Assembly (NCBI GenBank): GCA_003647275.1
Contig: QMMN01000007.1
Coordinates: 6,830-70,829, forward strand
DNA from: Deltaproteobacteria bacterium
GTDB lineage: Bacteria; Desulfobacterota; Desulfobacteria; Desulfobacterales; C00003060
DNA length: 64,000 bases
Direction: 5' to 3'
Each line of letters starts with the position of its first letter. Within the stretch, counting starts at the first letter, position 1. A program made the translations under genes and the position numbers. Positions 33,471-62,292 of the stretch are shown here, piece after piece. Below the pieces are notes generated by a model, which was not told the DNA's origin, made no database searches, and saw only the letters and a list, made by a program, of their open reading frames with translations.

Positions 33471-33531
33471 CTTGTTCCTCTCTCCTTCTTTTGCCAGGAC
33501 ATCTCGCCCTCATTATCTTAGGGCATTTGCG

Positions 33532-33546
33532 GCAAGACTTATGCCA
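33532..33546 (-). promoter_or_regulatory. Sigma-54 (-24/-12) promoter of the glutamate synthase operon
   Basis: The minus strand reads TGGCATAAGTCTTGC (GG-N10-GC spacing, TGGCAT...TTGC). It lies about 62 nt upstream of the ATG at 33470, and a GGAGAGAGG RBS follows. Confidence 0.6.
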
Positions 33547-33757
33547 ATTGAATATATACTACAATGTCAGTATGTTGCTCAACAGAAACCGTTTGCGCAC
33601 CTTGAAAAATAAACGCTTTTGTAGGATTTTTTATGGATAAACAACATTTTTGTATACTAACAGTCCGTCAAAGCTGAATGATGATTATAGAAAGCCATCG
33701 TGGGCTGCAACAGAACCCAATCTATAAGAAAGTGGCCGATGAATGAAAACACGGGGG

Positions 33758-35404
33758 TCACTCGAATGAGGGTAGGTACCTTTGGGCGATGGGATACCTT
33801 CTTCCATAGCCGAAAGATTTTGTGGTGACCTTCAATCCCGGGGGGGCCTGATGTCGCTTGTATTCGTTGCGATCAACCCGGCAGATGGTTTCCCTCACAG
33901 TTTGAGGGTCAAACCCCATGGCAACGATCTCCTCTGCCCCCTTATTGTCTTCAATGTATGCCTTCAATATCCCATCCAGGATCTCGTAAGGCGGCAAATC
34001 GTCCTGGTCTACCTGATCGGGTTTGAGCTCGGCCGATGGGGGTTTTTCAAAAATCCTCGCAGGAATCACCTCTTCTTTCTTGTTGACAAAACGGGCAAGC
34101 TCATAAACCATTGTCTTTGGAACGTCCGAAATCATGGCTAAACCGCCGCTCATATCACCGTAAAGCGTGCAATAGCCCACAGCCAGTTCTGATTTGTTCC
34201 CTGTAGAAAGCAGGAGGCAACCCAACTTGTTGGAAAGCGCCATGAGCAGGGTGCCCCGAATGCGTGCCTGGATATTTTGTCCTGTAATTTCCGTGGCAAT
34301 GTCTTTGAAGACCAAAGACAATTCCTCAAGAAACTTCTCGAATATGCCTGCAATGGGCAGTTGAATAAGCTGAATACCCAAATTGGATGCAAGGGCTTTG
34401 GTATCTTCAAAGTTTTCCGTAGACGTATATTGAGAAGGCATGAAAACACCCTTGACATTTTCCCTTCCAAGGGCCTGTACGGCGATGGCGGCCGTAAGGG
34501 CTGAGTCAATGCCGCCGCTCAATCCTACCACGACCTTGTCAAACCCACACTTTCGGACATAATCCCTGGTCCCCATAATCAGCGCATTGCACATAGATTC
34601 CGTGTCGGTTTCAGCAATGGGGTGCAGGTCTCCCTTTTGGGTTTGGGTATCAAAGACGATCATATCCTCTTCAAAGTCACGCGCCCGGGCCGTCATCTGA
34701 CCTGTTGAATCAAAGGCCACGCTAAGCCCATCGAATAGAACACTGTCATTTCCACCCACCTGATTGACGTACACGAGAGGAACCTGATATTTTTTGGCAA
34801 TATTGCCGAGCATGTCCCACTTAAATGCTCTTTTTCCGACATAATAAGGAGAAGCCGAAATGTTGATGATGAGATTGGCGCCATTCTTGATGATACGGGC
34901 TACGGGGTCAACAGAGTAAAGCCGCCTGGGGAAAAAATCCTTGTCATTCCAGATATCCTCACAAATGGTCAGCCCTATTTCCCAACCCTTATAAAAAAAA
35001 GAGCTGTATTCGGTGCCGGGTTCAAAATACCGCCTCTCGTCAAAAACGTCATAAACAGGGAGCAATCTCTTGTGTACTTGATGGAGAATCCTGCCTTCAT
35101 CAAAAAGTGCTGCCGAGCTGTAAAGCGGGTTGCCCTCCTGCTTCTGATTTTTATCTACAAATCCACAGATAACGCCGATCCCTTTGACGGAATCAACCAG
35201 CCTGTAAAAATGATCCAGGTTGGCGGTCACAAAGGCTTGCTTTTCCAGGAGGTCCCGGGGTGGATAGCCACAGATGACCAGTTCGGAAAACACGATAAGG
35301 TCACACGCAAGGTCTTTGGCCTTTTCTATGTAGGCCATGATCTTATCCATGTTGTGTTTGAAATCGCCGATCGTGGGATTGATTTGCGCAAGAGCGATCT
35401 TCAT
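33758..35404 (-). CDS. nadE: Glutamine-dependent NAD+ synthetase (nitrilase-like glutaminase plus synthetase domains)
   Basis: MKIALAQINPTIGDF CN-hydrolase N-terminus and the PP-loop GLSGGIDSAL. 548 aa. Confidence 0.9.
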   Translation of the reverse strand: MKIALAQINPTIGDFKHNMDKIMAYIEKAKDLACDLIVFSELVICGYPPRDLLEKQAFVTANLDHFYRLVDSVKGIGVICGFVDKNQKQEGNPLYSSAALFDEGRILHQVHKRLLPVYDVFDERRYFEPGTEYSSFFYKGWEIGLTICEDIWNDKDFFPRRLYSVDPVARIIKNGANLIINISASPYYVGKRAFKWDMLGNIAKKYQVPLVYVNQVGGNDSVLFDGLSVAFDSTGQMTARARDFEEDMIVFDTQTQKGDLHPIAETDTESMCNALIMGTRDYVRKCGFDKVVVGLSGGIDSALTAAIAVQALGRENVKGVFMPSQYTSTENFEDTKALASNLGIQLIQLPIAGIFEKFLEELSLVFKDIATEITGQNIQARIRGTLLMALSNKLGCLLLSTGNKSELAVGYCTLYGDMSGGLAMISDVPKTMVYELARFVNKKEEVIPARIFEKPPSAELKPDQVDQDDLPPYEILDGILKAYIEDNKGAEEIVAMGFDPQTVRETICRVDRNEYKRHQAPPGLKVTTKSFGYGRRYPIAQRYLPSFE

Positions 35405-35905
35405 AACCGTCTCGTAAATCTTGCAACTTGCTGAAGTAATTTTGCCCTATTGCTTATTGTATCACAAAATGATGCTGGATGCTCGATGTCCCGGATCCAC
35501 CGAGATTATTCCGGTAAAAGTCGGAATAGATTAAAATACAAACTGAATATATGTAGCCAGTATCAAGCATCCAGGCCGCCGCATCCATCTCGTGGATATC
35601 TTCCGCCACCGACTCAGGAAGCGGGTTATTCTCTTCGACGCTTCTTCGTGTCGTCGATTTCTTCTTGTCCGTAAAGCAAGAATCGATCTGTAAGAACATA
35701 TGAAGGGAGAGCCGAACCGCGCCTCTTCCTTTATCTGGGGAATGCCCTGTTTGGGGGCCACGTTATCATGAAGCCCTATAACTATAGGAGGCTCTTGCCT
35801 GTACGGGAATTTCTAATTTCATGCATTTTCCCTCAACCCCGCAGATAAGCAGGGCTAATCAGTGGCAAGTCGGTCAGGGAAAATCAGCGATTAAGCATAC
35901 TCACC

Positions 35906-35932
35906 ATTATACTATGGTAGAATGTTTGTCAA
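35906..35932 (-). promoter_or_regulatory. Candidate sigma-70 promoter (TTGACA-N15-TATAAT) firing towards nadE
   Basis: Both hexamers are perfect consensus on the minus strand, but the spacer is only 15 nt. It sits about 500 nt upstream of nadE. Confidence 0.3.
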
Positions 35933-36362
35933 TTTTCACACCTTCTGAGCGACAACACCCTTTCGCCATCCAGATCCTGAAGCCGACCCGTAAATCCCGC
36001 TCAACCAAGACAATGGTCGTGCCAATCCAAGATGACGACAGGTTGTTGCCCAAACAGCCATGCACCCGGCATGAGGAGGGCCATCAAGGGTGATTTCTTT
36101 TTGAAGTCAGGTCACTGGGAATAAGTCTCCTTATTACCTTTGGCTATTCGCTAAATGAAAAAACTTTTTTCGACATACCGGTTTATCCCATTTACAATGG
36201 GCGCCTGAGGTTGTAAACTGCATTTATATGTGCCCTTCAGGGCCAGCGGCTGGTTCGAGTGACGCGATGCATTCTGCCCCTGACAAGCAGAATAAGATTT
36301 GATCTTCCTCAAAAAGAGATGCCCCTTGGCAGTTTGCAAACGCCAAAAGAGGGGGCTGGGAC

Positions 36363-36415
36363 TTGAACATGCACAGCAAACGCATTCCCCACAGCTTGCT
36401 GCAGACCGCTTCAAT
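36363..36415 (+). repeat. 53-nt interspersed repeat, copy 1 of 3
   Basis: TTGAACATGCACAGCAAACGCATTCCCCACAGCTTGCTGCAGACCGCTTCAAT aligns along its full length with 44431-44483 and with the reverse complement of 38506-38558. Confidence 0.7.
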
Positions 36416-36725
36416 TATCGTGATTTAGGCAACCGCCTGACAACGGGCTGTTGCCCAGATAAAAATTCCTTTGAGCGGTCATTAAAATGTTTTTTGTCAA
36501 CAAATCTTGGCGAAGCGGAAGATCAGCGACTTCAACTGTTTGAGTCCGAAGGGCGAGTTTTGAAGTCGCCTGGAGCAAGCCTTAGATTTGTCAAAAAACG
36601 TTTTAGACCAAGCGAGAAGGGATTTGGGCAACAGTCTGACAATACCTGACCTATGGCCACAGCTGGCAAGAATTGTTGGGAAGAACTACCATTTTGTATG
36701 ATTGGCCGATAGAATCCTGCAAAAT

Positions 36726-38384: not shown

Positions 38385-38505
38385 CTTCATCCCTAAAGAT
38401 CATCAAAAATATATGGTAGCCCCACCTCATAAATACAATAAATACAAATAAGGTTTGCGGCTTTTTCCCCGGCATTGTAAAATGGCGGGAAAGTACGATC
38501 TCTTT

Positions 38506-41600: not shown

Positions 41601-42476
41601 GCAAATCACTTTTGTATCCTGGCGTTCGGTAAGCTTGGAGGCTCTGAACTCAATTACAGTTCAGATATTGACCTCCTGGGAATTTATGATGCCCCTGCCA
41701 CGTCTCTGGGGTCCAATGCTCACACCTTTTTGCAAAAGCGCTTCGCCCGGGTCATGGAAAGCGTACGAGCAGACCTTTCGATGCATACAGACGAGGGGTA
41801 TGCATATCGCGTGGACCTGCGACTCAGGCCATATGGTGGAGCGGGCGAACTCGTCCCCTCTGTTTCAGCACTCATAGATTATTATCGAAACGTGGCATCC
41901 CTCTGGGAAATTCAGGCAGCCCTTAAGATTCGGCCGGTGGCAGGCCACCTACAAATAGGTGACCATTTCCTTGAGAAGATCCGCCCTGTTCTTTTGCAAC
42001 GTCGCAAACGCGAGGCCATTGTCCATGCCATTGAAAAAATGCGCAAAGCGGCCATCAAAACCTGTTCTCGTCGCAATAGGCCCATCAGGGATGTGAAAAG
42101 CGGCATGGGTGGTTTGCGCGACGTGGAATTCCTGGTTCAAGGGCTGCAGCTCATCCATGGACCAGACCATCCCGGGTTGCTGGAGAGAAATACCCTGAAC
42201 GCCCTGGAGGGACTCCAAAAGACAGACATTCTACCTGAACCAGTGGCAGCGCAACTCAGGGAAGACTACGTGTTCTTGCGACGAGTCGAACACTATCTTC
42301 AAATTCTAGAAGATCGTCAAATACATGCCCTGCCAAAAGACCCTGATGAGCTGACCGCACTGGCCAAAAGGGTCCTTGGCGCTGAAGGGAATGCAAGCCA
42401 TTTCATGGAACAACTGGAGGGATGTCTGAAGCGCATACGGGCCGCCTATATCTCGTACCTGGTGGAAAGCAAGTGA
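38670..42476 (+). CDS. glnE: Glutamine synthetase adenylyltransferase/adenylyl-removing enzyme with an N-terminal tandem ACT-like extension
   Basis: Two nucleotidyltransferase halves (GKMGGAALGYASDIELLFVY and GKLGGSELNYSSDIDLLGIY). The first ~330 aa hold two ACT-like segments (NCTVLAFDYPYLFSLITGVLAGMGFNIVSGDVFTY and YTRLKIVSEDTPAFLYTLTNALSLQGISIEHVSIRTIHGRVEDEIEV). The start is uncertain: TTG 38619 or ATG 38670. Confidence 0.85.
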   Translation: MKPTLDMLKAACPEVDQRLLNAHLSRLSNRYFDRFATHQVCEHMKGLSRISTEHPVEVLLDAKGDGNVNCTVLAFDYPYLFSLITGVLAGMGFNIVSGDVFTYERALDKPLIDVCRRKLTSRRTVQDPLKRRRIIDFFSGQLETSRAPETWSDDLKKNMEDVISLLERGDSESVTDAKHRVNEMVVKRLADLHMDSHPVLFPVQIEFDNESGPYTRLKIVSEDTPAFLYTLTNALSLQGISIEHVSIRTIHGRVEDEIEVVDVRGKKIEDPNVLSRVKLSVLLTKQFTYFLGKAPDPYVALHRFEQLVGDVLRLPERGQWMDLLSNPHALQDLARLLGTSDFLWEDFIRLQYETLLPMLKPFLEGHRFSEPVDQLSQRLRNAIKGINKLEEQRRRLNEFKDREIFLIDLDHILNPETDFRVLARRLTVLAENVVNMAAELAYAHLVKRFGRPRTAADLEATFAILGLGKMGGAALGYASDIELLFVYSDNGSTDGEESIENAEFFDRLVRNTTQFIQAKREGIFNVDLRLRPYGNNGPLACSLENFCRYYGPEGSAHSYERLALVRLRAIGGDKNLAARVERIRDQMIYASRNINLKELRELRNKQFKEKTEAGKLNAKFSPGGLVDLEYAVQVLQVMYGKDVPQLRTPRIHEALTALTVAGVLSPVETEQLTAAYGFLRRLINGMRMLRGSAKDLFLPPIDSDEFAHLARRMEYKGGGALDPTGQLHMDVETHMATVRAFVERHFGRDSLPGSATGTVADLVLSDRVPHDLRHQILSGAGFKNPARAYVNLRALAGDESRRQTFARLALLAFDILLRTPDPDMALNNWERYIRALPSPEFHYNILLSQPMRLEILLSVLSGSQFLADTLVRNPGFLDWVTIPKNLHQIQGRKNLEDELRMASEGCNSHKVWLNKLRRFRRREMLRIGTRDIYLGVSTEDVMLELSTLAEALTQVVLERVWATLKEEQETAQEVEAIANHFCILAFGKLGGSELNYSSDIDLLGIYDAPATSLGSNAHTFLQKRFARVMESVRADLSMHTDEGYAYRVDLRLRPYGGAGELVPSVSALIDYYRNVASLWEIQAALKIRPVAGHLQIGDHFLEKIRPVLLQRRKREAIVHAIEKMRKAAIKTCSRRNRPIRDVKSGMGGLRDVEFLVQGLQLIHGPDHPGLLERNTLNALEGLQKTDILPEPVAAQLREDYVFLRRVEHYLQILEDRQIHALPKDPDELTALAKRVLGAEGNASHFMEQLEGCLKRIRAAYISYLVESK

Positions 42477-42513
42477 TCTCCCTTCAGGGCAGGAGAGGAT
42501 TCACACTTCTTCT

Positions 42514-44265
42514 TTACTGTAAAGGGAGACGCAGGATAAAAGTTGTGCCTTTTCTTAATTCGCTCTGGCATTCAATAGTCCCGCGATGAGCCTCTACAAT
42601 GGTCTTGACGATCGACAACCCGAGGCCAGTACCCTTTTTGCCTTTGGTTGTAAAGAACGGGTCGAATATCTGTTCTAAGATATCCGGCCCGATCCCAGGT
42701 CCTGTATCTTCTATCCTGACCACAAGGTGCTCTCCCTCAATCCTTCCTTCAATACTGATGTTTCCTGAATCAGTCATCGCCTCCAGGCTGTTTTTGACCA
42801 AGTTATTCAAGACCTGGTACATAAGGCGGGGGTCTACATTGACGGGGGGCAAGTCAGCGGGCCAGTTGAGTTCAAGGTGGATTCCTCTTTTTTCAGTATC
42901 AGGCTGATGGATCAATAAGACCTCTCGAATCATTGCATCGATTGATCTCCTTTCTAAGCGCAGTTCCGGTTTTTTGGCAAATTGCAAGAAATTGTGGATA
43001 AACTCCCTGACCCGCGCTGATTCCTTTTCCAGTATCTTCAGTGCATTTTTCCCCGTCGGGCTGAGAGCTTCGCCCTTCAGAGTAGCCTGGATCATTCCTA
43101 CATTGTTGAGAAGGTTGCCCACCTCATGGGTTACCTTGCTGGAGGTCGTGCCAAGGACGGCTAAGTTCTTGGCGTGGGCAAGTTCCCTGGCTGTCTCTAC
43201 TTCCCGCCTTATAAATTTCTTAAGCGAAGCTGTCATCTCATTAAAGGCCAGACCTAGATCGCCAATCTCGTCCTGCGAGTCAACAGACACCTTCTGATCT
43301 AAGTCGCCCTGGCCTATTCGTTGAACCTGGCGATGCAGGTTGTGAATCGGAGTTAAGAAGCGTTTTACCCAATTCCACCCGAGGAGGATAGCTGCAAGGC
43401 AGATTAAACAGGTTATAAAGGCTGCCCGATAAATATTCTGGTATAGATATGCATAGATCTCCGGATAGGTCTGACTCAAGACAATAACCCAATCAAAGCC
43501 CGGGATATAGTAGCCCAAACAGTAGAACTTGGTTTCGTCCCTTTCTTCGATCCATTCGATCGGCGTATCTGATTCTCGGAGTTCTTTGAGTATGTCCGGT
43601 TTTTTTGCCGGAGGGGTTGTTACGACCCGGTCAATCTTCCGGTGTGCGATAAATCGTCCCGATAGATCCATGATATACACCTGACCCGTGTGACCTATAG
43701 CAATTCCCTCCAGTACATCCCAGACAGACTTGAGGTTTAATTCGCCCCAGAGGACCTCTTTTACCTCGCCTAAGCGTAATACAGGGACGGCTATATGAAT
43801 GTAAGGGATATTCTCTTTGGTCAGCATGACACCAGAAATGGCGTTTTGGCCCATAAGGACTTTCTTAAAGATCTCGCTTTGACTAAAGGTAATGTCATCC
43901 CCTTCCCGACCGGTAGATACGATCTCGTTTCCTTCTATGGAAATCAAAGAAACAGACATAAATTCAACAGCCATATGATTGAAAGCTGTCAGGGCCATCT
44001 CTTTTTGCCACCGATCCAGTTTGGTGGCAGCCATCACCAAGGCAAGGCCTTCCAAACCCTTTTGGGCATGTTCCATGTAAAGGCGAATCTCGCCGGCCGA
44101 GCTTTTGATGATATTTCTGTAATCCTGGTTTATCGTTTTCAGGAAATAATTATAGCTTGTCCAGGAAAGGATCACGCTGGTAATGATTATAGATAGGATC
44201 AGGAGGGGGAGGATAAAAAGGAGGAACTTATAGATTAATTTTGTCTTTTTGATTCTATTCATCAA
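42514..44265 (-). CDS. Sensor histidine kinase (TM, large extracytoplasmic sensor domain, TM, HAMP, HisKA, HATPase)
   Basis: Two hydrophobic segments flank about 240 aa (a Cache-like position, not verified). HAMP-like LHRQVQRIGQGDLDQKV, H-box VTHEVGNLLNN, N-box NLVKNSLEAM, G-boxes EDTGPGI and GTGLGLSIV. Confidence 0.85.
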   Translation of the reverse strand: MMNRIKKTKLIYKFLLFILPLLILSIIITSVILSWTSYNYFLKTINQDYRNIIKSSAGEIRLYMEHAQKGLEGLALVMAATKLDRWQKEMALTAFNHMAVEFMSVSLISIEGNEIVSTGREGDDITFSQSEIFKKVLMGQNAISGVMLTKENIPYIHIAVPVLRLGEVKEVLWGELNLKSVWDVLEGIAIGHTGQVYIMDLSGRFIAHRKIDRVVTTPPAKKPDILKELRESDTPIEWIEERDETKFYCLGYYIPGFDWVIVLSQTYPEIYAYLYQNIYRAAFITCLICLAAILLGWNWVKRFLTPIHNLHRQVQRIGQGDLDQKVSVDSQDEIGDLGLAFNEMTASLKKFIRREVETARELAHAKNLAVLGTTSSKVTHEVGNLLNNVGMIQATLKGEALSPTGKNALKILEKESARVREFIHNFLQFAKKPELRLERRSIDAMIREVLLIHQPDTEKRGIHLELNWPADLPPVNVDPRLMYQVLNNLVKNSLEAMTDSGNISIEGRIEGEHLVVRIEDTGPGIGPDILEQIFDPFFTTKGKKGTGLGLSIVKTIVEAHRGTIECQSELRKGTTFILRLPLQ

Positions 44266-44430
44266 CGACCGAACCTGGACAAGCTGGAATTAAACAAGCG
44301 AAGGGACTCATCACGCCCCCCCTCAAGGCGGACGCCATAAAACACGAAAGAAACAGGAATGGCGAGGCTACTGGCAGGTACGTATAAAAGATCCTTTACT
44401 CATTGTAAAGAATATTTAAAGGGGTAAGAT

Positions 44431-44483
44431 ATGAACTGCAACAGCGAGCGCATTCCCCGCAGCTTGCTCCAGGGGGCTTCAAT
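44431..44483 (+). repeat. 53-nt interspersed repeat, copy 3 of 3
   Basis: ATGAACTGCAACAGCGAGCGCATTCCCCGCAGCTTGCTCCAGGGGGCTTCAAT lies in the MFS-to-kinase spacer. Confidence 0.7.
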
Positions 44484-44489
44484 GAATAA

Positions 44490-45668
44490 TTATCTCTTTG
44501 CCAGAAGGGATGCCGAAACCATAATAAAAGAGCCGGTCAATAGAAGGGATTGGGGGCCCCATATCTTTAATACGAGGGCGCTGCTTAATATGGTCCCTAA
44601 ATAACATGCGCCTCTGTAAGTTGATAACAATGATATGGTTTTCCCTATATGGGTCCTCGGGCTGTTTTGCTGGATGAGGCTTTCCAAAAAGATATGTATT
44701 AAGGTAAAGCCGCAACCAAACAGGATCATCAGCAAGGCAACCTGGATGTAGGTCGTGAGTTGACCAAGGATGGCCATGGCGCCCCCGAGGATCAAAAAGG
44801 TGAAGGAGAGGATGGTTTGCTGCCTGAAGGTTGATGAACATCTGGGCAACAGGAAGGTAGCCAGGCAGGAACCAGCCTGAAATCCAGACATGATCAATCC
44901 CCAATCAGCAATATTCCTCCCAAAATGTATCTTAAAAAAAATGGGAAGACCAAGATTTAACACCCCGCCTCCCAGGAGGACAAACCCGAAGATCATAAAA
45001 TAGGCCTTGAGGTCATGATTGTCTGTAAATGGCTCTCTGTACTTAAAAAGCAAAGGCCTTAGACCTTTACCTCGCCTCAGACAATGGGTCGATTGTTCAG
45101 CGATCTGACCAAATTTCGGAAGTCCGTAAATGGCGCACACCGAGAGTGTGAAAAGAAGCCCGGCCAGCCCTAAAGCGACCCCCTGACCTGTTTTCAGGAC
45201 AATCCATCCGATGAGCCATGGACCGAATATCCGCCCTACAAGAGATACCCTTTCATTAAGTGAGTTAAAAGAGATAAGCTCATCTTTGGGTATCAACATG
45301 GGGGTCAGGGAAAGTCGCCCGATATGGAAAAAGAGAGAACCAATCATAAAGCAAAGATAGGCAGGAAAGATGACCCAGAGGGATGCTTTAAAGACAAGGA
45401 TCCCGACCAAAAGGCATTTGCTTAGATTGACGATGATGAGCCACCTTCTTCCCCCGACCCGATCAATCCAGAAGCCCGCAAAAGGGCTCAGGAAGATAGA
45501 AGGTGCCTGCTCAATGACGCACATCACCAGGAGATTGGATAAGGCACGCTCACCCTTAAAAATCAGCAAGTCGAGCAGGGTTAATTGGACGAACTGGTTT
45601 CCCAGATCTGACAGAAGATCAGCCGATATGATCAGGTACTTGGGGTGAATCCGGTCAATCCCTTTCAC
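44490..45668 (-). CDS. MFS transporter (putative exporter of the adjacent peptide locus)
   Basis: 392 aa, hydrophobic throughout with about 11-12 predicted helices. Its GTG start overlaps the corrected rSAM stop as GTGA. Confidence 0.75.
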   Translation of the reverse strand: MKGIDRIHPKYLIISADLLSDLGNQFVQLTLLDLLIFKGERALSNLLVMCVIEQAPSIFLSPFAGFWIDRVGGRRWLIIVNLSKCLLVGILVFKASLWVIFPAYLCFMIGSLFFHIGRLSLTPMLIPKDELISFNSLNERVSLVGRIFGPWLIGWIVLKTGQGVALGLAGLLFTLSVCAIYGLPKFGQIAEQSTHCLRRGKGLRPLLFKYREPFTDNHDLKAYFMIFGFVLLGGGVLNLGLPIFFKIHFGRNIADWGLIMSGFQAGSCLATFLLPRCSSTFRQQTILSFTFLILGGAMAILGQLTTYIQVALLMILFGCGFTLIHIFLESLIQQNSPRTHIGKTISLLSTYRGACYLGTILSSALVLKIWGPQSLLLTGSFIMVSASLLAKR

Positions 45669-46980
45669 GCTGCTTTTTTCAGGCGGATATTCTCTCCCTG
45701 AGACAAAACCGCAGAGGCCCTCTGTCTGATGTAATCTTCAAGAAAAAAACGATAGGTATTGTAATGACAATCGACCCCGTTAAAATCCTTCTCATGAACC
45801 AGGGCCTGCATGCGGCACCCCCCATGCAGATGGGCAGAATGGGGCATTTGTTGAGACATCTGTCCGGTAATCTTCGCTTCAGTAGTTGGGATTCTGAGAC
45901 AAAGTCGATCCCTTTGGTGACGTGTCCATAGGCCATTTCCCCACCTTGAAGGGATGGGCATGGGATAATCGAGCCATCTGTGTCAAAGACAAACCGGGCT
46001 CGAAAATCAGCCATACAGGTGTTGGAGGGGGCCTCACGATCCTGCAGATAGCCCCGTTTTTCAGCCTCCTGCATCAGGTATTGAAGTATTTTAGGATCGC
46101 CCATCCCGGAATCATAGGGGCTTTCTCCTCTTCTGGCCAGGATGGGGGTGAAGGTGATGTTTTCAATAGCAATATGGCGCTCGCCCATATCATCCAGCAT
46201 CTCTGGAATGCTCAGAAAATCAAGTGCCCCGCTGTCGTATTGACATTCAATGTTGATGGGAATCAGACCGGAAACAGCCTGTAGATTCTCCATGATCAGG
46301 TCATAGGTCTTCCCATTATTCTTGGAGGGCCGCAAAAAATCGTGAACAGGGGCCGGCCCGGCCAGGCTGACCCGAATGCCTGTGAGTCCTACCTCTTTCA
46401 TGCCCGAGATCATGGATGGCCTGAGGAGCGTGCCGTTGGTGGTAATGGTAAAGCCATATTCGATCCCCCTGCCCAGGCAGTAATAAAACCGCCTGGCAGC
46501 ACTTTCTAAGATGATCTCAGAATTAAGGAGCGGCTCACCCCCAAGGTAGTCGTCTTCAACCCTCTGAGGGTTCTTTTCCTGGATGATCTCAATGTAGAAC
46601 CGGTCCATGGCCCGGGCTGTGTCAGGGGACATCTCCCTGGCTTCAGGGTCCAGGATGCAGTAGCGACATCGATTATTACATTTCCGGGTGACCAGGACCT
46701 TGGATCTTAATGTGCTGAAGTCATGGACGTATTGTTGCTTCCAGTTCTCAAACACAATGGTTTCGTCCACGCCCTCCTTGACCAGGAATCCCTGGTCACA
46801 GAGCATATCGATGGCAGCCGGATCGGCTGGTGCGACGGGATCGCTCAGGATATAAGACCAGGTCTTTTCAGGGATCAGGATAAAGGCCCCTGTCATGGTC
46901 TGATAGAGGGCGATGAGCGCTTCTCGGCTGTTTTCAACAGCAATATCCACCGTGAATCTGGATTTCTTAAAAAAAGCCAT
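45665..46980 (-). CDS. Radical SAM/SPASM peptide-maturase-like enzyme, interrupted by an apparent 1-nt frameshift in a G6 run (ORF-track pieces 45679-46980 and 45665-45961)
   Basis: CNNRCRYC (CxxxCxxC) at aa 101-108, after a ~100-aa N-terminal extension (RRE-like position). CX13GX4C (CMADFRARFVFDTDGSIIPC). After a frame shift at the C-run 45818-45823, the C-terminus reads CLNKCPILPICMGGCRMQALVHEKDFNGVDCHYNTYRFFLEDY, which completes the SPASM cysteine pattern. Confidence 0.8.
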
Positions 46981-46995
46981 GATGTGATCTCCTTT

Positions 46996-47035
46996 AAAAA
47001 CGGCCCCCCGGGCAAACCAGGTCTGCCCGGGGGCC
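46996..47035 (-). terminator. Intrinsic terminator/attenuator hairpin between the precursor peptide and the rSAM gene
   Basis: The minus strand reads GGCCCCCGGGCA-gacctggtt-TGCCCGGGGGGCC (12 bp, one bulged G), followed by GTTTTT and then the rSAM RBS AAAGGAG. Confidence 0.55.
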
Positions 47036-47051
47036 TAAAATAGTCGTCGGG

Positions 47052-47141
47052 TTAGTTGCGGGAGCTTGGAGCATTTCCACAGCACATGAGTCCTGACTTT
47101 TTGACCCTGTATGTGCCCTTGTTGATCACAATCAGTTTCAT
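47052..47141 (-). CDS. Putative RiPP precursor peptide, 29 aa: MKLIVINKGTYRVKKSGLMCCGNAPSSRN
   Basis: Absent from the ORF track because it is below the size cutoff. ATG at 47141 is preceded by AAGGAGG with a 9-nt spacer, and TAA is at 47052-47054. It lies 71 nt upstream of, and co-oriented with, the rSAM/SPASM gene. The C-terminal half contains a Cys-Cys pair. Confidence 0.6.
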   Translation of the reverse strand: MKLIVINKGTYRVKKSGLMCCGNAPSSRN

Positions 47142-47402
47142 GATCGCACCCCTCCTTTCTTGAGTGATTTCAGTCATAACATTAGCCAATGCGCGCCTGG
47201 CTGGTGTTTTTTCATTATCAGGATGTGTGCCATGATTTGAGATCTGTGAGGGGATTGTCTATCTCATTGTTATTGTAAGGAAAGAGGATATGGATCAAGG
47301 GATGAAGAGGGCTTTTGAAAGAGTAAGGGTTTGAACTTTTTGAGGGTGAGTTTGAACAGCGTGGATATAAGTGTTAACTTGGCGCGTCCTTGAAACTGTG
47401 AG

Positions 47403-47470
47403 GCCTCCCCGTGCTTCCGCACGGAGGGTTCTGCCTGACGGCAGCGCTTCGCGTCCGGGGAGCAAGCCGG
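47403..47470. repeat. GC-rich multi-hairpin (cloverleaf-like) repeat, copy 2
   Basis: It has the same outer helix CTCCCCG/CGGGGAG and the identical segment TTCTGCCTGACGGCAGCGCTTCGCGTCCGGGGAGCA. The first hairpin is GTGC-ttcc-GCAC instead of GCCC-tccc-GGGC. Confidence 0.7.
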
Positions 47471-47526
47471 GTCAAACCAATCCTCAAGCAAACCGGTCCT
47501 CAAGCCCGCCAAAGGCGGACGCGCCT

Positions 47527-49101
47527 CTAACCCGATTTAAGCGAGGCATATCTGAGGCGGTAGATCCCTTCGTGGGTGAGAGAAAACGGGAAAGGCAATT
47601 TAAACCGTTTGGACATCACATCAATGGCTGTTTTATGAAACAAAAACGTGCCAGGCTGAAGCGCTTGGATCCGGGCATCGATCTTATAAAAAAGCGCTTT
47701 TTGCTTGAATGGGTCTTTTTCATCAAGGGCCTGACAGATCAGGCGGGTCACCTCAGGATCTTCAAATGAACCAGCCTCAGACCTTTTGGGGCGATCAAAA
47801 GACCATGACTGTTTCAAGAATTCAGGATCCCGGTAAACGCCTCTCAACTCTGTTAGCACGGCCTGAAACTGATTGTTTCTATAGTATCTTCTTTTAAGCT
47901 CCTCAAAAGGAACGGATTGCAGGCGCACCTTGATCCCGAGATCATTCAGGCAAATCTGCAGGTATTGGGCGACCTTTTTTTCAATCTGGCTCTCTTTAAA
48001 GACAAGGATAGTAAATTCAAACCCCTTTCCACCCTTTTCAAGATAGCGGCCCTCATGATCATAAGACCAGCCTGCTTGTTTCAGGAGCGCCAGTCCCTTT
48101 TTGGGGTTGTATGGTATGGGTTGGACCTCGGGGTTGTGATAAGGGGAGTCCACCCCCATGGGGCCGACTGCAATCCTCCCAAAGCCCCTTAAGATCTTCT
48201 TTACGATGTATGCCCTGTCAATGGCATAAGAAAAGGCGAGTCGAACCCTTGGATCAGAAAAAAGGGGATCGGTTGTATTGTAGAGGAGGATCGTGTACCA
48301 ACGCAGAGGGTAGAGATCAAAATAGTATCTTTTTCCATACTGCTTCATCATCTCATAGTTTTTGGGGGAAATCTCCTGTGCAATATCTGTCTCCCCTGAA
48401 AGGACCCTTGTCCATGACTTTTCTTTGTCCGGCTGAAAATAGAAGACAACTCGATCTATGGAAGGGCGGCCATGAAAATAATCTTTATTCGCCTCAAGGC
48501 AGACTTCCTTTTCTCCTTTTCTGTATTTGAATCTAAACGGGCCAGAGCCAATGGGGTGATTGTAATAATCGATCTTATCTTCATGGGGTTGAGGAAGAAT
48601 CTCCATGTCCCAGATCTTTTGAAGAAATTCAGGATCGTTTCTCTTAAGACCAATACAAATAACCGTATCTGACAAAGGAAAGATCCGGTCTATTAGAGAA
48701 AACAAAGCAGGGCGATTGTTCTTTAGCACCCCCTCCAATGCATACTGGACATCCCTTGAAGTCACAGGGTGTTTGTTGTGGAACAGGGCGTCTTTTCTGA
48801 GATGGATCGTCCAGGTAAAACTCTCGGAATCATAGGTCCATTTGAGGGCCAGATCCGGTTCGAGTTCTCCGTTGGCATTTGGGACAAAAAGATAACTGTA
48901 CAACAAAGGGAAGATATGGTTTGAACCGGAGGCATAAACATATGTGGGATTCAAAGAGGTAAAAGGGGCGCTCACATCATAGCGAAGGACATTTTCATTT
49001 TTGTTTTTTTCCCTGGCAGGAGGGGTGCCAGGTTGTTCACAGGAAAGAATAAAACCGGTAAAGAAAATAAATACTAGGATTGAACTCAGATATCGAAGCA
49101 T
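47527..49101 (-). CDS. ABC-type family-5 (peptide/nickel/opine, OppA/DppA-like) substrate-binding lipoprotein, with no adjacent permease or ATPase
   Basis: 524 aa. Signal peptide with a possible lipobox (FILSC) and family-5-like blocks (LRYDVSAPFTSLNP, GSGPFRFK). No cognate membrane components lie nearby. Confidence 0.8.
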   Translation of the reverse strand: MLRYLSSILVFIFFTGFILSCEQPGTPPAREKNKNENVLRYDVSAPFTSLNPTYVYASGSNHIFPLLYSYLFVPNANGELEPDLALKWTYDSESFTWTIHLRKDALFHNKHPVTSRDVQYALEGVLKNNRPALFSLIDRIFPLSDTVICIGLKRNDPEFLQKIWDMEILPQPHEDKIDYYNHPIGSGPFRFKYRKGEKEVCLEANKDYFHGRPSIDRVVFYFQPDKEKSWTRVLSGETDIAQEISPKNYEMMKQYGKRYYFDLYPLRWYTILLYNTTDPLFSDPRVRLAFSYAIDRAYIVKKILRGFGRIAVGPMGVDSPYHNPEVQPIPYNPKKGLALLKQAGWSYDHEGRYLEKGGKGFEFTILVFKESQIEKKVAQYLQICLNDLGIKVRLQSVPFEELKRRYYRNNQFQAVLTELRGVYRDPEFLKQSWSFDRPKRSEAGSFEDPEVTRLICQALDEKDPFKQKALFYKIDARIQALQPGTFLFHKTAIDVMSKRFKLPFPFSLTHEGIYRLRYASLKSG

Positions 49102-49104
49102 TTA

Positions 49105-50241
49105 TTATGATAGAAAAACCTCAGAGAGTCTGTATCTGGACTGATTTGCCTTTTTTTTATTATGCACACAGATATGGTTCTTTTTCAATATAGAAAGATA
49201 TTTGCCTGCTGTTCCGTATTTATTCCTGTCGGATTTGGCCTTGTCACTCAGGAACCTTGCAAACTCGAGCCGGGAAAATGGTCTTTGGCTGGTCTTTAAA
49301 AGAAATTCATGGATGGTCTCTATGGTGGTACACTTCAAGGTGCGATGCCATTGTTTTGCTGCCCCGCCATTATCAGATATGGTCGCTCCCTTTAGCACCG
49401 CTAAGAGCTCGTCACTCTTAACGCTGGCGTAAGCCTCATATTCTCTCCCTGACCCGTTTGATATTTCTTCGGGAAGGTCTTGAATGGTTATCTCCCTTTG
49501 TTTGGTTAGGATAACCGCCCGTTCGATGATGTTTTCCAATTCCCTGATATTTCCGGGAAATGAATAGTTCATCAGGACCTCAAGGGCCTTGTTTGATATC
49601 CCCAGAATATCTTTTTTGTTTTCACAGGCATATTTTGCCACAAAATGATCAACCAGGGGCGGGATATCCTCTTTATGGTCTCTCAAAGGGGGAAGCTGAA
49701 TCTGGATAACATTCAGACGATAAAACAGATCCTCCCTGAACCAACCTTCCTGAACGCCTTCCTTCAGGTCTTTATTGGCGGCCGCGATGAAGCGTACATC
49801 CACCTTGATGGTCCTGGTGCCTCCGACCCGTTCAAATGCCATCTCCTGGAGTACCCTCAGTAATTTGACCTGAAGGGATAGAGACATCACAGAAACCTCA
49901 TCCAGGAAGAGGGTGCCCTTATCCGCCAGCTCGAATCGGCCTTTTTTCATGGCAATAGCCCCGGTAAAAGCCCCTTTTTCGTGTCCAAACATCTCGCTTT
50001 CACACAGGTTATCAGCCATGGCCGAGCAGTTGACCGCAATAAAGGGTTTGTCTCTCCGTGGGCTATGATCATGAATGGCCCTGGCAATCAACTCTTTTCC
50101 TGTTCCACTTTCCCCGACAATCAGTACCGTGGCCCTGGTGGGGGCAACCATTTCGATGAGTTCATAGATCTTTAACATGGGTCCGCTTTTCCCCACCATA
50201 TTATGAAAGTGGGGTTGTTGGATAGCTTCTTGCGGTAACAT
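49105..50241 (-). CDS. Sigma-54-dependent activator consisting of an AAA+ domain with an atypical C-terminus (no receiver or sensor domain)
   Basis: Starts about 15 aa before the AAA+ core. [14 protein letters not shown] (HEKGAFTGA), and FPGNIRELEN. The last ~120 aa lack the usual AA-LG-SR-TLYRK Fis-type HTH signature. Confidence 0.8.
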   Translation of the reverse strand: MLPQEAIQQPHFHNMVGKSGPMLKIYELIEMVAPTRATVLIVGESGTGKELIARAIHDHSPRRDKPFIAVNCSAMADNLCESEMFGHEKGAFTGAIAMKKGRFELADKGTLFLDEVSVMSLSLQVKLLRVLQEMAFERVGGTRTIKVDVRFIAAANKDLKEGVQEGWFREDLFYRLNVIQIQLPPLRDHKEDIPPLVDHFVAKYACENKKDILGISNKALEVLMNYSFPGNIRELENIIERAVILTKQREITIQDLPEEISNGSGREYEAYASVKSDELLAVLKGATISDNGGAAKQWHRTLKCTTIETIHEFLLKTSQRPFSRLEFARFLSDKAKSDRNKYGTAGKYLSILKKNHICVHNKKKANQSRYRLSEVFLS

Positions 50242-50336
50242 ATGCGCCTCCTTCCTTGCTCGGTCGTATCCGATCGGTCACACAAAGGGTTTATAAAAAA
50301 CACTATAGGTGAACTAGGGCTAAGGGAGGAGTCATC

Positions 50337-52211
50337 TTAAAACTCAAAGTTTACCCCGCCCTCAATCCAGCGATCAGGTTGAGGAAAGACGTGGCGGTAG
50401 ATGTAGGTAGAGTTGGTAAGATTGTGTACAGCACCAAAGAGAGTTAGGTCGCCGTATCGGTCCGGAAAAGGGGGTTTGACCTGAAGGAGATAGTCAAAGA
50501 TAAAGACGCGATCTCGGGTCTCGGGGTAGCTGGAATAGTTATAGACATATTTTCCGACAATGGAATGGGTCATCCATTGATGTGTGTAGGAGGCCGAGAC
50601 ATTATAAAGGGTCCTGGGGATATCCTGGATCACCTTGTCGGTCTCTTCATCTCTCACATCCATAAAGCTCCCGCCGAATGAGAGGGTCAACCCAAAGCCA
50701 AAGGTGGCCCGGATGTTGCCTTCTACGCCCTGCCGGGTGACCTTATCGATATTTTCATACTTTTTGGTGTCCGGGTTATAGCGGATGAGGTCCTTGATGT
50801 CCGCCCGAAAAAGGTTCAGTTCGAGCCTCAGGAACCTGAAGGGTCGCACCTCGCCGCCAAGCTGATAGTTTATCCCGGCCTCTGGTTTCAGGTCCTTGTT
50901 GCCATACTGGGGATCGTTTACCCAGGCACCGGGTGGGGCTGAAAAGCCTTTAGCGACCTGGGCTCGGATAAGGGCATCCACGCCTGAAATACGATAGACC
51001 ATTCCGCCCGAAGGGCTGACCTCAGAGCCAAAATCATGGTTATCATCATAGCGAGCCCCGGCATTAAAAGAGAACGCTTCCAGGTTGAAGGTATCATTGG
51101 CATAAATGGCCCAGTTTCTGGAGTTATACTCTTTGGCATAAGAGCTGAAATCGTATCGGCCCCAATCCCCGTCAAACCCCAGATTAAACCTGTTTAAATC
51201 ATTGGTGTAGTAACTCAGCCGGGCACTGCCCCCCCAGGTCTCCTCTAAGTAATGGAAATAGTTTTCCCTGTGATCAGGATAAACATCGTCAATCCAGTTA
51301 AAGAATCGATGATGCCGTCCCTCAAGAGTCAGATCAAGATTTTCAACAGGCGAGGTCTCAAAGAGAAGGCGTTGGTAGGTGCGTCTGCGATAGAGGTCAT
51401 CCCAGAAATCCGGATAATTAAGAACGGGATCTGCATTGCGGCCCACATCATAGCTGTAGGCAAAGTTAAGGCGACTTGTCTCACCCAGTTCATGGTTGAT
51501 TTTGGCATATACGGCCTCCTGTTCGTACCCGGTATGCTCGATGAACCCGTTGCTCTCCTCATGGGTAAGGGAGAGTAGGAACCCAAAACGATCCTTCGTA
51601 CCGCTGAAGGTTCCGCGGTTCTTTAAGGTTTTAAACTCTCCATAAGAGGTGCGGAGATCGGCCACAAACGGCTTTTTGGGGTCGGGTTCTTTGGTGATGA
51701 TGTTGATCAAACCACCCAGGGAAGAACCCCAGGCCGAGGAGGCCGCCCCCTTGTAGATCTCGATCCGCTCGATCGTATCAATGGGAATATAAGAAAGGTC
51801 AGCCATGGGATTGGCCAGTTGGTTGAGGGGGATCCCATCCTGATAGATGGCCACATGCCGGACGTCAGAACCCTGGATGGTAGCCGTGGACTGGCTCCCC
51901 AATCCACCGTTAAACTCCACGTAGATACCTGGTACATACTGGAGCACCTCGGCCGCATTGGAGGCCGGCATCTTTTCTATATCATCCCTGGTAATAACCG
52001 TGATGTTTGCAGCGACCTCCTGTCTGGGGGTCTCCAGGCGGGTGGCAGTCACCACGATTTCTTCCAATTTATATTCATGGACTTCGGGTCCGGAAGGCAT
52101 ATCTGCTGCCCAAGCTTTCAAAAAGAACATAACCCAAAGAACAGAGCTAACAATAAGAACTACCTCAGTTTTCGGTTGTTTCATCCAACTCGTAATTCTT
52201 AATTTTTTCAA
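50337..52211 (-). CDS. TonB-dependent outer-membrane receptor (small, BtuB/CirA-sized)
   Basis: Signal peptide ending AWA, TonB-box/plug EEIVVTATR, and a plug domain. The C-terminal beta-barrel ends in GGVNFEF (terminal aromatic). The likely start is the internal Met at 52184. Confidence 0.85.
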   Translation of the reverse strand: MKKLRITSWMKQPKTEVVLIVSSVLWVMFFLKAWAADMPSGPEVHEYKLEEIVVTATRLETPRQEVAANITVITRDDIEKMPASNAAEVLQYVPGIYVEFNGGLGSQSTATIQGSDVRHVAIYQDGIPLNQLANPMADLSYIPIDTIERIEIYKGAASSAWGSSLGGLINIITKEPDPKKPFVADLRTSYGEFKTLKNRGTFSGTKDRFGFLLSLTHEESNGFIEHTGYEQEAVYAKINHELGETSRLNFAYSYDVGRNADPVLNYPDFWDDLYRRRTYQRLLFETSPVENLDLTLEGRHHRFFNWIDDVYPDHRENYFHYLEETWGGSARLSYYTNDLNRFNLGFDGDWGRYDFSSYAKEYNSRNWAIYANDTFNLEAFSFNAGARYDDNHDFGSEVSPSGGMVYRISGVDALIRAQVAKGFSAPPGAWVNDPQYGNKDLKPEAGINYQLGGEVRPFRFLRLELNLFRADIKDLIRYNPDTKKYENIDKVTRQGVEGNIRATFGFGLTLSFGGSFMDVRDEETDKVIQDIPRTLYNVSASYTHQWMTHSIVGKYVYNYSSYPETRDRVFIFDYLLQVKPPFPDRYGDLTLFGAVHNLTNSTYIYRHVFPQPDRWIEGGVNFEF

Positions 52212-55399: not shown

Positions 55400-56688
55400 T
55401 GACGGAGAAGGGCATGAATGAAAAGTATGAAAAAATGTGGGAGGACTTGGGCCTTGATATCAGTGCCCATGACGGACTCCTCAAAGTTCTGGGGCAATTT
55501 TACGGCGATATCTATCTCAGCCAGGACAAACGTCTAAAGGGGATGGAATATCTGGATTTCGTGCTGTCAGAGGTTCATGGCCTGCGGATCAAAGAACTCC
55601 AGGATGCCAGGGCGGCCGGGAAGAAAATTATTGGAACATTCTGCATGTTTGTGCCGGAAGAGCTGATCTGTGCTGCCAACAGCACGGCGGTTGGCCTCTG
55701 CGCAGGAGCAGAGATCGGCAAGGAGGCAGCTGAAAAGATCTTACCCCGCAACACCTGTGCTTTGATCAAATCCTTTGTGGGCTTTAAGCTGGCCAAGCTG
55801 TGTCCATACGTCGAATCCTGCGATTTGGTTATAGGTGAAACCACCTGCGATGGCAAAAAGAAGGCCTACGAGATCTTCCAGGAATACGTGCCCATGCATA
55901 TCATGGAGCTTCCCCAGATGAAAGGGGCTTGCGATCGGGATCTCTATATGACTGAGGTGTTGAAGTTCAAGGCAAAGATAGAAGAGGTCAGCGGCCACGA
56001 TATTACGGCAGATAATTTAAAGGAGGCCATCAAGCTCATCAATAACCGGCGGAAGGCTTTGCAGCGACTCAATCAGCTTCGCAAGGCGATCCCCACGCCG
56101 ATTTCCGGAAGGGACGTTTTGCTCATCAATCAGATATCATTCTACGATGACCCTTGGCGGTTTACCGCCAAGATTAATGAACTCTGTGATGAGCTTGAAA
56201 AGCGTGTCCAGGCAGGCGAGGGTATCGTGGAAAACGACATCCCGCGCCTCATGATGTCGGGCTGTCCCATGGCCGTGCCCAACTGGAAGCTTCCCTATGT
56301 GGTGGAGTCCTCAGGGGCAGTCATTGTGGGAGAAGAATCGTGCATCGGGACACGAAACACACGGGACTTGGTAGACGAAACCGGTGAGACAATGGAAAAG
56401 ATGATCAATGCCCTCGTGGATCGTTATATGCGTATTGACTGTGCCTGCTTTACCCCGAACCCTGAGCGCCTGGAACACATTGTAGAGATGGCCAAAGACC
56501 TCAAGGTCAATGGCGTGATCCATTACGCCCTCCAATTCTGTCATCCTTATACTATTGAAGCTTATAAAGTGGAAAAAGCCCTGGAGCAGGAGAATATTCC
56601 CCTGCTCAGGATAGAGACCGATTACAGTATGGAGGATATTGAACAGCTCAAGACCCGGGTGGAAGCGTTTGTGGAAATGGTCAAATAA
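55396..56688 (+). CDS. 2-hydroxyacyl-CoA dehydratase / benzoyl-CoA reductase BcrB-BcrC family (HGD-D) subunit, paralog 1
   Basis: IIGTFCMFVPEELI, CALIKS, IGETTCDGKKKAYE, and a C-terminal YALQFCHPY...ETDYS. The start overlaps the yedF stop. Confidence 0.8.
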   Translation: MMTEKGMNEKYEKMWEDLGLDISAHDGLLKVLGQFYGDIYLSQDKRLKGMEYLDFVLSEVHGLRIKELQDARAAGKKIIGTFCMFVPEELICAANSTAVGLCAGAEIGKEAAEKILPRNTCALIKSFVGFKLAKLCPYVESCDLVIGETTCDGKKKAYEIFQEYVPMHIMELPQMKGACDRDLYMTEVLKFKAKIEEVSGHDITADNLKEAIKLINNRRKALQRLNQLRKAIPTPISGRDVLLINQISFYDDPWRFTAKINELCDELEKRVQAGEGIVENDIPRLMMSGCPMAVPNWKLPYVVESSGAVIVGEESCIGTRNTRDLVDETGETMEKMINALVDRYMRIDCACFTPNPERLEHIVEMAKDLKVNGVIHYALQFCHPYTIEAYKVEKALEQENIPLLRIETDYSMEDIEQLKTRVEAFVEMVK

Positions 56689-56700
56689 GGAAGCAGCGCA

Positions 56701-57846
56701 TTGAGACCAGAAAGCATGTCCTTGTTTGATCGTTTGAGTGAGAAGAGTCAGCTTGAAATAGAAACGGCAAAGGAGGTCGGCACAAAGGTAGTAGGCTTGT
56801 ACTGTACCTTTGCCCCAAAAGAGCTGGTACGCGCGGTCGGTGCCATTCCTGTTGGCCTCTGCGGAAAAGATCAAACACCCATTCGTGATGCAGAAACTAT
56901 CTTACCTGCAAACCTTTGCCCCCTGATCAAGTCAAGCTACGGCTATGCCATCACAAACACGTGTCCCTATTTCTATCTTTCAGATTTTCTCATTGGGGAG
57001 ACGACCTGTGACGGCAAGAAGAAGATGTTTGAGCTCCTGGGACAACTGAAACCCTTATTTCTCATGCATCTGCCGCCCTGTTGTGATGAAAATCGGTCTT
57101 TGAATTATTGGGTCGGAGAGGTGATAAGGCTCAAAGACTTCTTAGAGAGACAGACTGGTACGAAAATAGGTGAAGAGGAATTAAGTCGCCAGATTAAGAT
57201 TCATAATAAAAAAAGGGTGTTATTAAAGGAGATTGTTGGCTACTGCGCAAATTATCCTGTACCCATTTCCGGCACGGATATGATGGTGGTGATGGAGTCC
57301 AGGAACTTTTTGGTTGATATCGAAGGCTACATAAACAATCTGCAGCGACTTGCCCGCGAGCTTCAGGCCATAAAAAGGGAGGGGAGATCGGTCTGCAGCC
57401 CCGATGCCCCGAGGATACTTCTGACAGGATGCCCGGTGGGTAAGGGTTCGGAAAAGGTTCTGCGAATAATCGAGGAATGCGGGGGTGTTGTCGTCTGTCA
57501 GGAGCATTGTACCGGCATCAAGAGTTTTAACCTGCTGGTGGACGAAGATGATGCCCCTTACAAAGCCATCGCACACCGCTATTTAAAAACCCCCTGTTCC
57601 TGCATGACACCCAACCAAGGCCGAATCGAACTCCTGTGCCAGCTCATCGAGGATTTCAAAATTCAGGGCGTGGTCGATCTAACCTGGCAGTGTTGTCATA
57701 CTTACAATGTTGAGTCCTACCTCATCAAGACGTTCTTGGAAAAAAGATACCAGATACCGCTTCTCCACCTTGAAACAGATTATTCTGAATCGGATACAGG
57801 GCAATTGAAGACCAGGATTGAGGCTCTTCTGGAGATGTTCCATTGA
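56701..57846 (+). CDS. HGD-D family subunit, paralog 2
   Basis: VVGLYCTFAPKELV, CPLIKSS, IGETTCDGKKKMFE, and TWQCCHTY...ETDYS. The start is TTG 56701 or ATG 56716. Confidence 0.8.
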   Translation: MRPESMSLFDRLSEKSQLEIETAKEVGTKVVGLYCTFAPKELVRAVGAIPVGLCGKDQTPIRDAETILPANLCPLIKSSYGYAITNTCPYFYLSDFLIGETTCDGKKKMFELLGQLKPLFLMHLPPCCDENRSLNYWVGEVIRLKDFLERQTGTKIGEEELSRQIKIHNKKRVLLKEIVGYCANYPVPISGTDMMVVMESRNFLVDIEGYINNLQRLARELQAIKREGRSVCSPDAPRILLTGCPVGKGSEKVLRIIEECGGVVVCQEHCTGIKSFNLLVDEDDAPYKAIAHRYLKTPCSCMTPNQGRIELLCQLIEDFKIQGVVDLTWQCCHTYNVESYLIKTFLEKRYQIPLLHLETDYSESDTGQLKTRIEALLEMFH

Positions 57847-57884
57847 TTGAAAATGAAATTACCAAAACCAAGGAGGATACGGAA

Positions 57885-59072: not shown

Positions 59073-59080
59073 ATCCTCCA

Positions 59081-59917: not shown

Positions 59918-59920
59918 GCC

Positions 59921-60682: not shown

Positions 60683-60686
60683 TCAA

Positions 60687-62288: not shown

Positions 62289-62292
62289 GCGT

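Follow-up and report, generated by a model that had tools for sequence, protein, structure and literature searches.

Gene content and organization of the locus

The window, the whole stretch of 64,000 nucleotides that was analyzed, carries on its minus strand a radical SAM/SPASM peptide maturase gene which encodes 438 amino acids when read with a run of seven G (45665-46980). In minus-strand order, this gene is preceded by genes for a TonB-dependent receptor (50337-52211), a sigma-54 activator consisting of an AAA+ core without a receiver domain (49105-50241) and a family-5 solute-binding protein (47527-49101), then by a sigma-54-like element, a peptide gene and a hairpin. It is followed by genes for an MFS transporter resembling the EntS/H+ antiporter (44490-45668) and, downstream of the latter, a dCache-HAMP histidine kinase (42514-44265). 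The solute-binding protein is distantly NikA/CntA-like: NikA and CntA were its best matches, with scores far under the cut-off. The activator, the solute-binding protein and the kinase are conserved neighbors and the TonB-dependent receptor is retained in many orthologous loci. Synteny of the cassette is maintained in approximately 30 loci from metagenomes, at identities as low as about 45-50%.

The candidate precursor peptide has 29 residues (MKLIVINKGTYRVKKSGLMCCGNAPSSRN; 47052-47141, minus strand) and its gene has a strong Shine-Dalgarno sequence, AAGGAGG, at 47151-47157. It is kept upstream of the radical SAM gene in the orthologous loci. In a motif scan, a peptide ORF was present upstream of the maturase gene in 34 of 37 loci; its length is about 27 to 34 codons and varies with the choice of start codon. 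The distance between the two is 54-90 nt in most loci and 138-212 nt in a few, and most of the peptide ORFs have a strong Shine-Dalgarno sequence. Alignment of 25 orthologous peptides revealed that G9, C20 and C21 are invariant and that P25 is nearly so. The locus thus has what is expected of a RiPP cassette, namely a conserved short precursor ORF with its own ribosome-binding site beside a maturase gene. Nine precursor-like peptides did not match any NCBIfam model at E values up to 10, in a search whose sensitivity is limited by the HMMER filters and the shortness of the peptides; a Pfam scan of these very short sequences did not assign them to any family either.

Two further elements flank the peptide gene. 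A GC-rich hairpin followed by a run of T lies between the peptide and radical SAM genes (46996-47035, minus strand), and nearly all orthologues have a hairpin in the same position, with stems that differ in sequence. Upstream of the peptide gene, a sigma-54-like -24/-12 element, TGGCACACATCCTGAT, is present at 47217-47232 on the minus strand and is preceded by direct repeats (GTTCAAAC). Its -24 part, TGGCAC, is shared by most orthologues in the alignment, and its -12 part deviates from TTGC.

A single-nucleotide frameshift within the last SPASM cysteine motif

The original prediction held that the radical SAM/SPASM gene is split by a one-nucleotide frameshift in a run of six G that falls within the last SPASM cysteine motif, and we reproduced all coordinates and sequence statements on which it was based. 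The coding (minus) strand reads CTGCCCATCTGCATGGGGGGTGCCGCATGCAGG at this site, with the run in the codons ATG GGG GGT GCC. The G6 homopolymer (C6 on the plus strand) occupies 45818-45823 and is one G shorter than in other assemblies of the same strain and of a sister strain. As deposited, the frame-A ORF (45679-46980, minus strand) specifies the 433-residue protein RLB83128.1, of which residues 1-388 are native and the last 45 are out of frame; it ends in ...CPILPICMGGAACRPWFMRR... / ...CPILPICMGGAACRPWFMRRILTG... The overlapping frame-B ORF (45665-45961, minus strand) reads ...HLHGGCRMQALVHEKDFNGVDCHYNTYRFFLEDYIRQ... / ...HLHGGCRMQALVHEKDFNGVDCHYNTYRFFLEDYIRQRASAVLSQGENIRLKKAA.

Lengthening the run from G6 to G7 in silico fused the two ORFs into a single one of 438 codons that reads ...CLNKCPILPICMGGCRMQ...DCHY...KKAA*, as had been anticipated from one extra G, and G7 is indeed found in the DNA of identical and near-identical genotypes. 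The TGA of the restored ORF overlaps the GTG start codon of the MFS gene in the tetranucleotide GTGA (45665-45668), in agreement with the predicted overlap. The frameshift is located between the third and fourth cysteines of the clustered C-x3-C-x5-C-x3-C SPASM motif. It replaces 50 native C-terminal residues by 45 aberrant ones, and the invariant residues C389 and C405 are lost.

The restored protein as a radical SAM/SPASM maturase

The protein belongs to the radical SAM superfamily according to its score of 52.3 bits with PF04055 (gathering cut-off 29.5). A database search yielded 313 homologues. The best 120 of these are mostly full-length, most of them with 437-441 residues, and stem from Desulfobacterales/Thermodesulfobacteriota MAGs and sediment metagenomes; more than 100 homologues of 424-471 residues span the restored protein nearly entirely. 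When 24 homologues with identities down to 54% were aligned, the radical SAM cysteines C101-x3-C105-x2-C108 (CxxxCxxC) proved invariant, and so did C322, G336, C341, C375, C379, C385, G387, G388, C389, R390, F400, G402, C405 and Y407. Since its cysteines and glycines are invariant in all 24 proteins, the SPASM pattern can be written as C-x13-G-x4-C ... C-x3-C-x5-C-x3-C ... C. The restored G7 protein contains the full set of seven SPASM cysteines (C322, C341, C375, C379, C385, C389 and C405), and the deposited G6 protein is devoid of C389 and C405.

Profile scores rose upon restoration. With TIGR04085 (SPASM; cut-off 27), the score increased from 31.0 bits for the deposited to 42.4 bits for the restored protein, and with TIGR04280 it increased from 174.0 bits (profile positions 9-400) to 203.6 bits (positions 9-424 of 428). 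These gains, together with the invariance of tail residues in the 24 homologues, bear out the proposal that frame B encodes the end of a SPASM domain. None of the orthologues ends in the frame-A sequence, the case in which the resemblance of the frame-B tail to SPASM ends was to be taken as coincidental. As judged from alignment and profiles, frame B supplies the native C-terminus. By analogy with anSME and CteB, we take C389 and C405 to be ligands of two auxiliary [4Fe-4S] clusters, and since both are lost in the G6 product, the latter is almost certainly inactive if the analogy holds.

Among curated families, TIGR04280, the geopeptide maturase family, gave the highest score. With the frame restored, the match spans the profile from end to end, and the likeness extends to the combination of radical SAM and SPASM domains and to a short peptide gene adjoining the maturase gene. 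However, even the restored protein reached only about half of the curated cut-off of 400 bits and the adjoining peptide had no NCBIfam match. Because of this score, the enzyme is regarded as a relative of the geopeptide maturases that belongs to a distinct family. A literature search on geopeptide and TIGR04280 returned nothing relevant. The nearest solved structure is that of CteB (5WGG; E = 2.8e-10), a radical SAM/SPASM maturase that forms thioethers in SCIFF. The radical SAM cores align, and CSGGC in CteB matches CMGGC in our protein, both conforming to the CxGGC of the SPASM motif. In contrast to these parallels, the similarity to CteB is low and limited to the radical SAM core, and a single invariant Cys-Cys pair is present in the candidate precursor, whereas the SCIFF substrate has six cysteines.

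Seven G in further assemblies of this genotype and of a sister strain

We found G7 and the exact restored protein in three further assemblies of the same genotype, an ENA MEGAHIT assembly, an ENA SPAdes assembly and the Logan assembly of SRR6823441. Contig ERZ27227320:k141_508232 was reached through an exact match to the window's MFS protein; comparison over 7,179 bp gave 0 mismatches and one gap, the extra G, and over positions 23758-50980 of the window it is identical apart from G7 instead of G6 (0 mismatches, 1 gap). Logan contigs of SRR6823441 exhibit 100% identity to the window at 18886-26909, 27955-36527 and 56499-62472, and over 41665-47455 the extra G is the sole difference. The exact restored 438-residue protein is also encoded on a SPAdes contig of 187,898 nt (ERZ1742239), which has a single SNP relative to the window over 13.3 kb. 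We infer the kinship of the window, SRR6823441 and the ERZ assemblies from this 100% identity. Together, the assemblies of this genotype cover positions 18886-64000 of the window (45,115 bp), in which the differences amount to one indel, i.e. the tract itself, and one SNP. The covered part contains 88 homopolymers of at least six nucleotides, 16 of them G/C, and the other 87 agree.

A sister strain with approximately 99% identity encodes an intact, 99%-identical protein on four JGI contigs with the gene order kept, and all four of these assemblies have G7 (ATG GGG GGG TGC). Most other indels that distinguish the window from this strain lie between genes or have lengths divisible by three; the one exception, of 1 nt, is at 38650, where the glnE ORF has its 5' end. 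Hence, the window contig is sound on the whole, since the remaining indels resemble real divergence between strains.

The G6 product is recorded once, as RLB83128.1 on the 73,634-nt NCBI/JGI contig from which the window itself was taken. This record can be equated with the source of the window because the IMG-style MFS product of its contig is the same as the MFS protein of the window except for V at the GTG start. Look-ups of the exact 433-residue G6 protein and of the IMG version of the MFS protein in the position index returned no further contig. A pattern scan of JGI metagenome contigs for a tract of any length between exact flanks had no match in a collection that evidently does not include the samples of the JGI contigs known to carry this sequence, and it adds nothing to the allele count. 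Counted by assembly, G7 is represented seven times and G6 a single time, and neither G5 nor G8 was seen.

The tract in orthologous loci

In all 39 related loci the gene is in frame and encoded as a single-frame gene, and a two-frame organization occurs in none of them. The two glycine codons that make up the tract drift synonymously among these loci (GGA GGG, GGC GGC, GGT GGA, GGG GGA etc.), and a G run longer than three is absent at these codons in 24 of the 39. Judging from these codons, the G run is an accident of the synonymous glycine codon choice of this lineage. Nor is the tract exceptional within the window, because the latter has 23 runs of G or C of at least six nucleotides, among them G7/C7 tracts at 29674, 33840, 44316 and 51229. 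In an accompanying control, one base was inserted or deleted at each of 400 homopolymers of at least five nucleotides and merged ORFs were sought. This procedure is insensitive to C-terminal lesions and picked up only natural gene junctions; it was left out of the evidence.

These data bear on the proposal that slippage in the tract causes phase variation, for which a comparison of orthologues for G7 and G6 had been suggested. An evolved switch would require that the poly-G run is kept so that the maturase can toggle at high frequency between ON (G7) and OFF (G6 or G8). It would be compatible with the occurrence of both G6 and G7 in otherwise identical DNA and with the intragenic position of a tract in which a change by one nucleotide in either direction inactivates the enzyme. 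In these latter respects the tract resembles the poly-G contingency loci of Campylobacter, Neisseria and Haemophilus, intragenic G runs in which such changes shift the frame. The runs in those loci, however, are longer and conserved as tracts, and a G7 run is at the short end of the range for known contingency loci. Here, the tract is not conserved among orthologues, the variation at its codons is purely synonymous, the assemblies compared provide no G8 or G5 allele, and runs of similar length are plentiful in the window. The lack of conservation in particular makes an evolved switch unlikely, and we consider this part of the original prediction very improbable.

Programmed recoding would be another way to reconcile a G6 run with a functional gene, if -1 ribosomal frameshifting or transcriptional slippage produced the full-length enzyme from it. 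In the frame-A register, G_GGG_GGU is a formal match to the slippery heptamer X_XXY_YYZ, and a -1 shift would yield exactly the native sequence M-G-G-C. This reading is opposed by the single-frame organization of the gene in all 39 related loci, identical genotypes included, from which it follows that no lineage depends on recoding. A stimulatory RNA structure was not detected in the 78 nt downstream of the tract, the minimum free energy of which is -14.7 kcal/mol compared with a mean of -15.7 kcal/mol for shuffled sequences (z = +0.37), and to our knowledge heptamers consisting solely of G do not act as efficient shift sites in bacteria. Programmed frameshifting was rejected as there is neither conservation of a two-frame gene nor a downstream structure, and we regard recoding as the least probable of all the explanations.

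Origin of the six-G run

The original prediction had left open whether the frameshift arose by a homopolymer sequencing or assembly error, by a recent inactivating mutation or by phase variation. These causes can now be ranked, with an error or minority allele placed first, a recent mutation second and an evolved switch last.

In our judgment, G6 is probably an artefact of assembly or sequencing, or else a minority allele. The organism's gene would then be intact, with the native sequence ATG GGG GGG TGC (Met-Gly-Gly-Cys) and a G7 run, and the deposited contig, which belongs to a MAG binned from a metagenome assembled with MEGAHIT, would have lost one G at the homopolymer, either through an Illumina or assembler homopolymer error or because the assembler took a minority read path. 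The result would be RLB83128.1 with its out-of-frame tail of 45 residues. The correct reading would be a 438-residue radical SAM/SPASM maturase which is translationally coupled via GTGA to the MFS exporter and encoded downstream of a 29-residue Cys-Cys precursor. An artefact or minority path is favored because G6 appears in a single assembly event and G7 was recovered from three others on identical sequence. Moreover, the truncation removes residues that do not vary within the family, so that its fixation would be strongly deleterious. On these grounds we infer that sequencing or assembly, and not the cells, gave rise to G6.

G7 runs are prone to slippage both in vivo and in vitro, and if the window belongs to the Guaymas Basin MAG set (see below), one indel per 45 kb would be within the range expected of metagenome assemblers. 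The discrepancy resembles homopolymer errors in short-read MAGs in that it is a one-base change in a run of at least six nucleotides, occurs in one assembly only and results in an apparently split gene with an out-of-frame tail. Platform-type homopolymer errors, on the other hand, usually come several together, whereas this is the sole indel discrepancy in 45 kb. There is no systematic homopolymer error profile to invoke, because the other 87 covered homopolymers agree, and since the tract is the only such discrepancy, some probability remains with a real minority allele. The accession series suggests that the window comes from the Guaymas Basin MAG set. Those data consist of HiSeq 2x125 reads that were assembled at the JGI with MEGAHIT v1.0.6 and k values up to 123 (PMC6258724).

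The deposited sequence itself reads G6 in a contig that is otherwise accurate and agrees with the other assemblies over the rest of the window. This would also be expected if a real and very recent slippage from G7 to G6 had occurred in the sampled clonal population or in part of it. The maturase would then be truncated with the loss of one ligand per auxiliary Fe-S cluster, and the peptide would be unmodified or absent. Such a loss of function would represent ordinary mutational decay or standing heterogeneity and not an evolved switch. It is in line with the general knowledge that G7 tracts are mutational hot spots and with the position of the frame-A stop codon just 10 nt before the MFS start, by virtue of which the truncation would lack a strong polar effect on the downstream gene. 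Moreover, should the other assemblies derive from different samples, G6 could be the allele that truly predominates in the window's sample. Evidence to the contrary comes from the G7 run in seven assemblies, three of this genotype and four of the sister strain, from the restriction of G6 to one assembly event, from the strong purifying selection on the lost residues across the family and from the pristine state of the maturase gene, the peptide gene and their neighbors, none of which bears a second lesion. A genuine recent loss-of-function allele therefore appears rather unlikely to us. It is a good deal less likely still that G6 is not only real but segregates in an otherwise clonal Desulfobacterales population as a non-producer of an undescribed, sigma-54-controlled Cys-Cys RiPP. 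If this were true, sulfidic sediments would harbor a naturally occurring 'cheater' genotype at this locus, with a peptide of a new class as the public good, and the conserved partner proteins, namely the MFS exporter, the TonB-dependent receptor, the NikA/CntA-like binding protein and the sensor kinase, would suggest that the peptide is secreted, re-imported and possibly metal-binding.

Implications

An artefact or minority allele remains the explanation we prefer, and most likely the frameshift is not a feature of the organism. RLB83128.1, which lacks two Fe-S ligands, is best read as the intact 438-residue protein, the same product as in the ENA and Logan assemblies. More generally, when a pseudogene or 'phase variation' is called at a homopolymer from a single MAG contig, reads or sister assemblies should be consulted to check the call.

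In practical terms, the analysis provides a corrected gene model, and the RiPP cassette is a more interesting object than the frameshift. From its sequence and surroundings, the gene appears to be an intact member of a widespread and uncharacterized Desulfobacterota RiPP cassette, putatively of a CC-peptide type. A literature search combining radical SAM RiPPs, TonB and metallophores returned nothing relevant. Methanobactin is an example of a peptide that is secreted and recaptured, and the set of an exporter, an outer-membrane receptor and a binding protein in the cassette recalls systems for such peptides, so that, by analogy, the Cys-Cys peptide may be of this kind.

Relatedness of the window to other assemblies

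When the window was compared with the JGI contigs L008 and L009, the differences were strongly clustered at 10.5-14 kb (10580-14020), and almost none were found at 14-31 kb, where identity was 99.9% as opposed to approximately 99.0% in the 35-55 kb region. This suggests that co-occurring strains have recombined or that their relatedness is mosaic.

Further differences lie in the glnE region. In the window, the glnE open reading frame lacks one nucleotide at its 5' end (position 38650) relative to the 99% identical sister strain, and because of this difference the called glnE products vary in length (1285, 1268, 1295 and 1297 amino acids). In the glnA-glnE intergenic region (38437-38445), the window carries a 9-bp tandem duplication, TTGTATTTA, relative to the sister strain. 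In two of the JGI contigs of that strain, L005 and L006, glnE is called in two pieces (145 plus 251 or 243 amino acids). Their alignment to the window is interrupted at the split (L005 9386-9420 and L006 5018-5028, equivalent to window positions around 41960-42005) by a gap of about 44 nucleotides, and identity falls to 97.4%. These two assemblies may contain a chimeric join at this point, or a genuine deletion.

A conserved cassette around the radical SAM gene

Directly upstream of the radical SAM (rSAM) gene, we found a conserved gene for a precursor-like peptide (47052-47141, minus strand). Loci L001 and L017-L050 likewise encode such a peptide just 5' of the rSAM gene. Across loci it comprises roughly 27-34 amino acids and follows the consensus MKLIVINKGTYxV[RK]xSG[ML]xCCx2-4P[ST]SRN, in which the glycine and the Cys-Cys pair are invariant and the proline is near-invariant. 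It has no match among NCBIfam or Pfam models and appears to be uncharacterised.

Between the peptide and maturase genes lies a GC-rich hairpin (46996-47035, minus strand), which in the window has a T run on its 3' side. A hairpin is present at the equivalent position in nearly all orthologues (approximately 30 loci). The stem sequences differ between orthologues, yet pairing is kept, which suggests that the hairpin is a conserved element setting the peptide:enzyme ratio, either as an attenuator or by stabilising the mRNA.

A sigma-54-like promoter, TGGCAC-N5-CTGAT (47217-47232, minus strand), precedes the start of the peptide by 76 nt and reads TGGCAC-N5-TTGC in distant orthologues. Two direct repeats, GTTCAAAC, lie further upstream (47329-47357, minus strand), spaced 21 nt start to start. 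This arrangement is consistent with regulation by the sigma-54 activator encoded in the neighbourhood, a protein devoid of a receiver domain and of a recognised HTH_8 domain.

The neighbourhood (42514-52211, minus strand) is kept in about 30 loci in the order TonB-dependent receptor, sigma-54 activator, NikA/CntA-like family-5 binding protein, peptide, rSAM protein, EntS-like MFS protein and dCache histidine kinase. No ABC permease or ATPase genes adjoin the binding protein gene. The architecture of the cassette hints that the peptide may be secreted and re-imported, and that it possibly binds metal.
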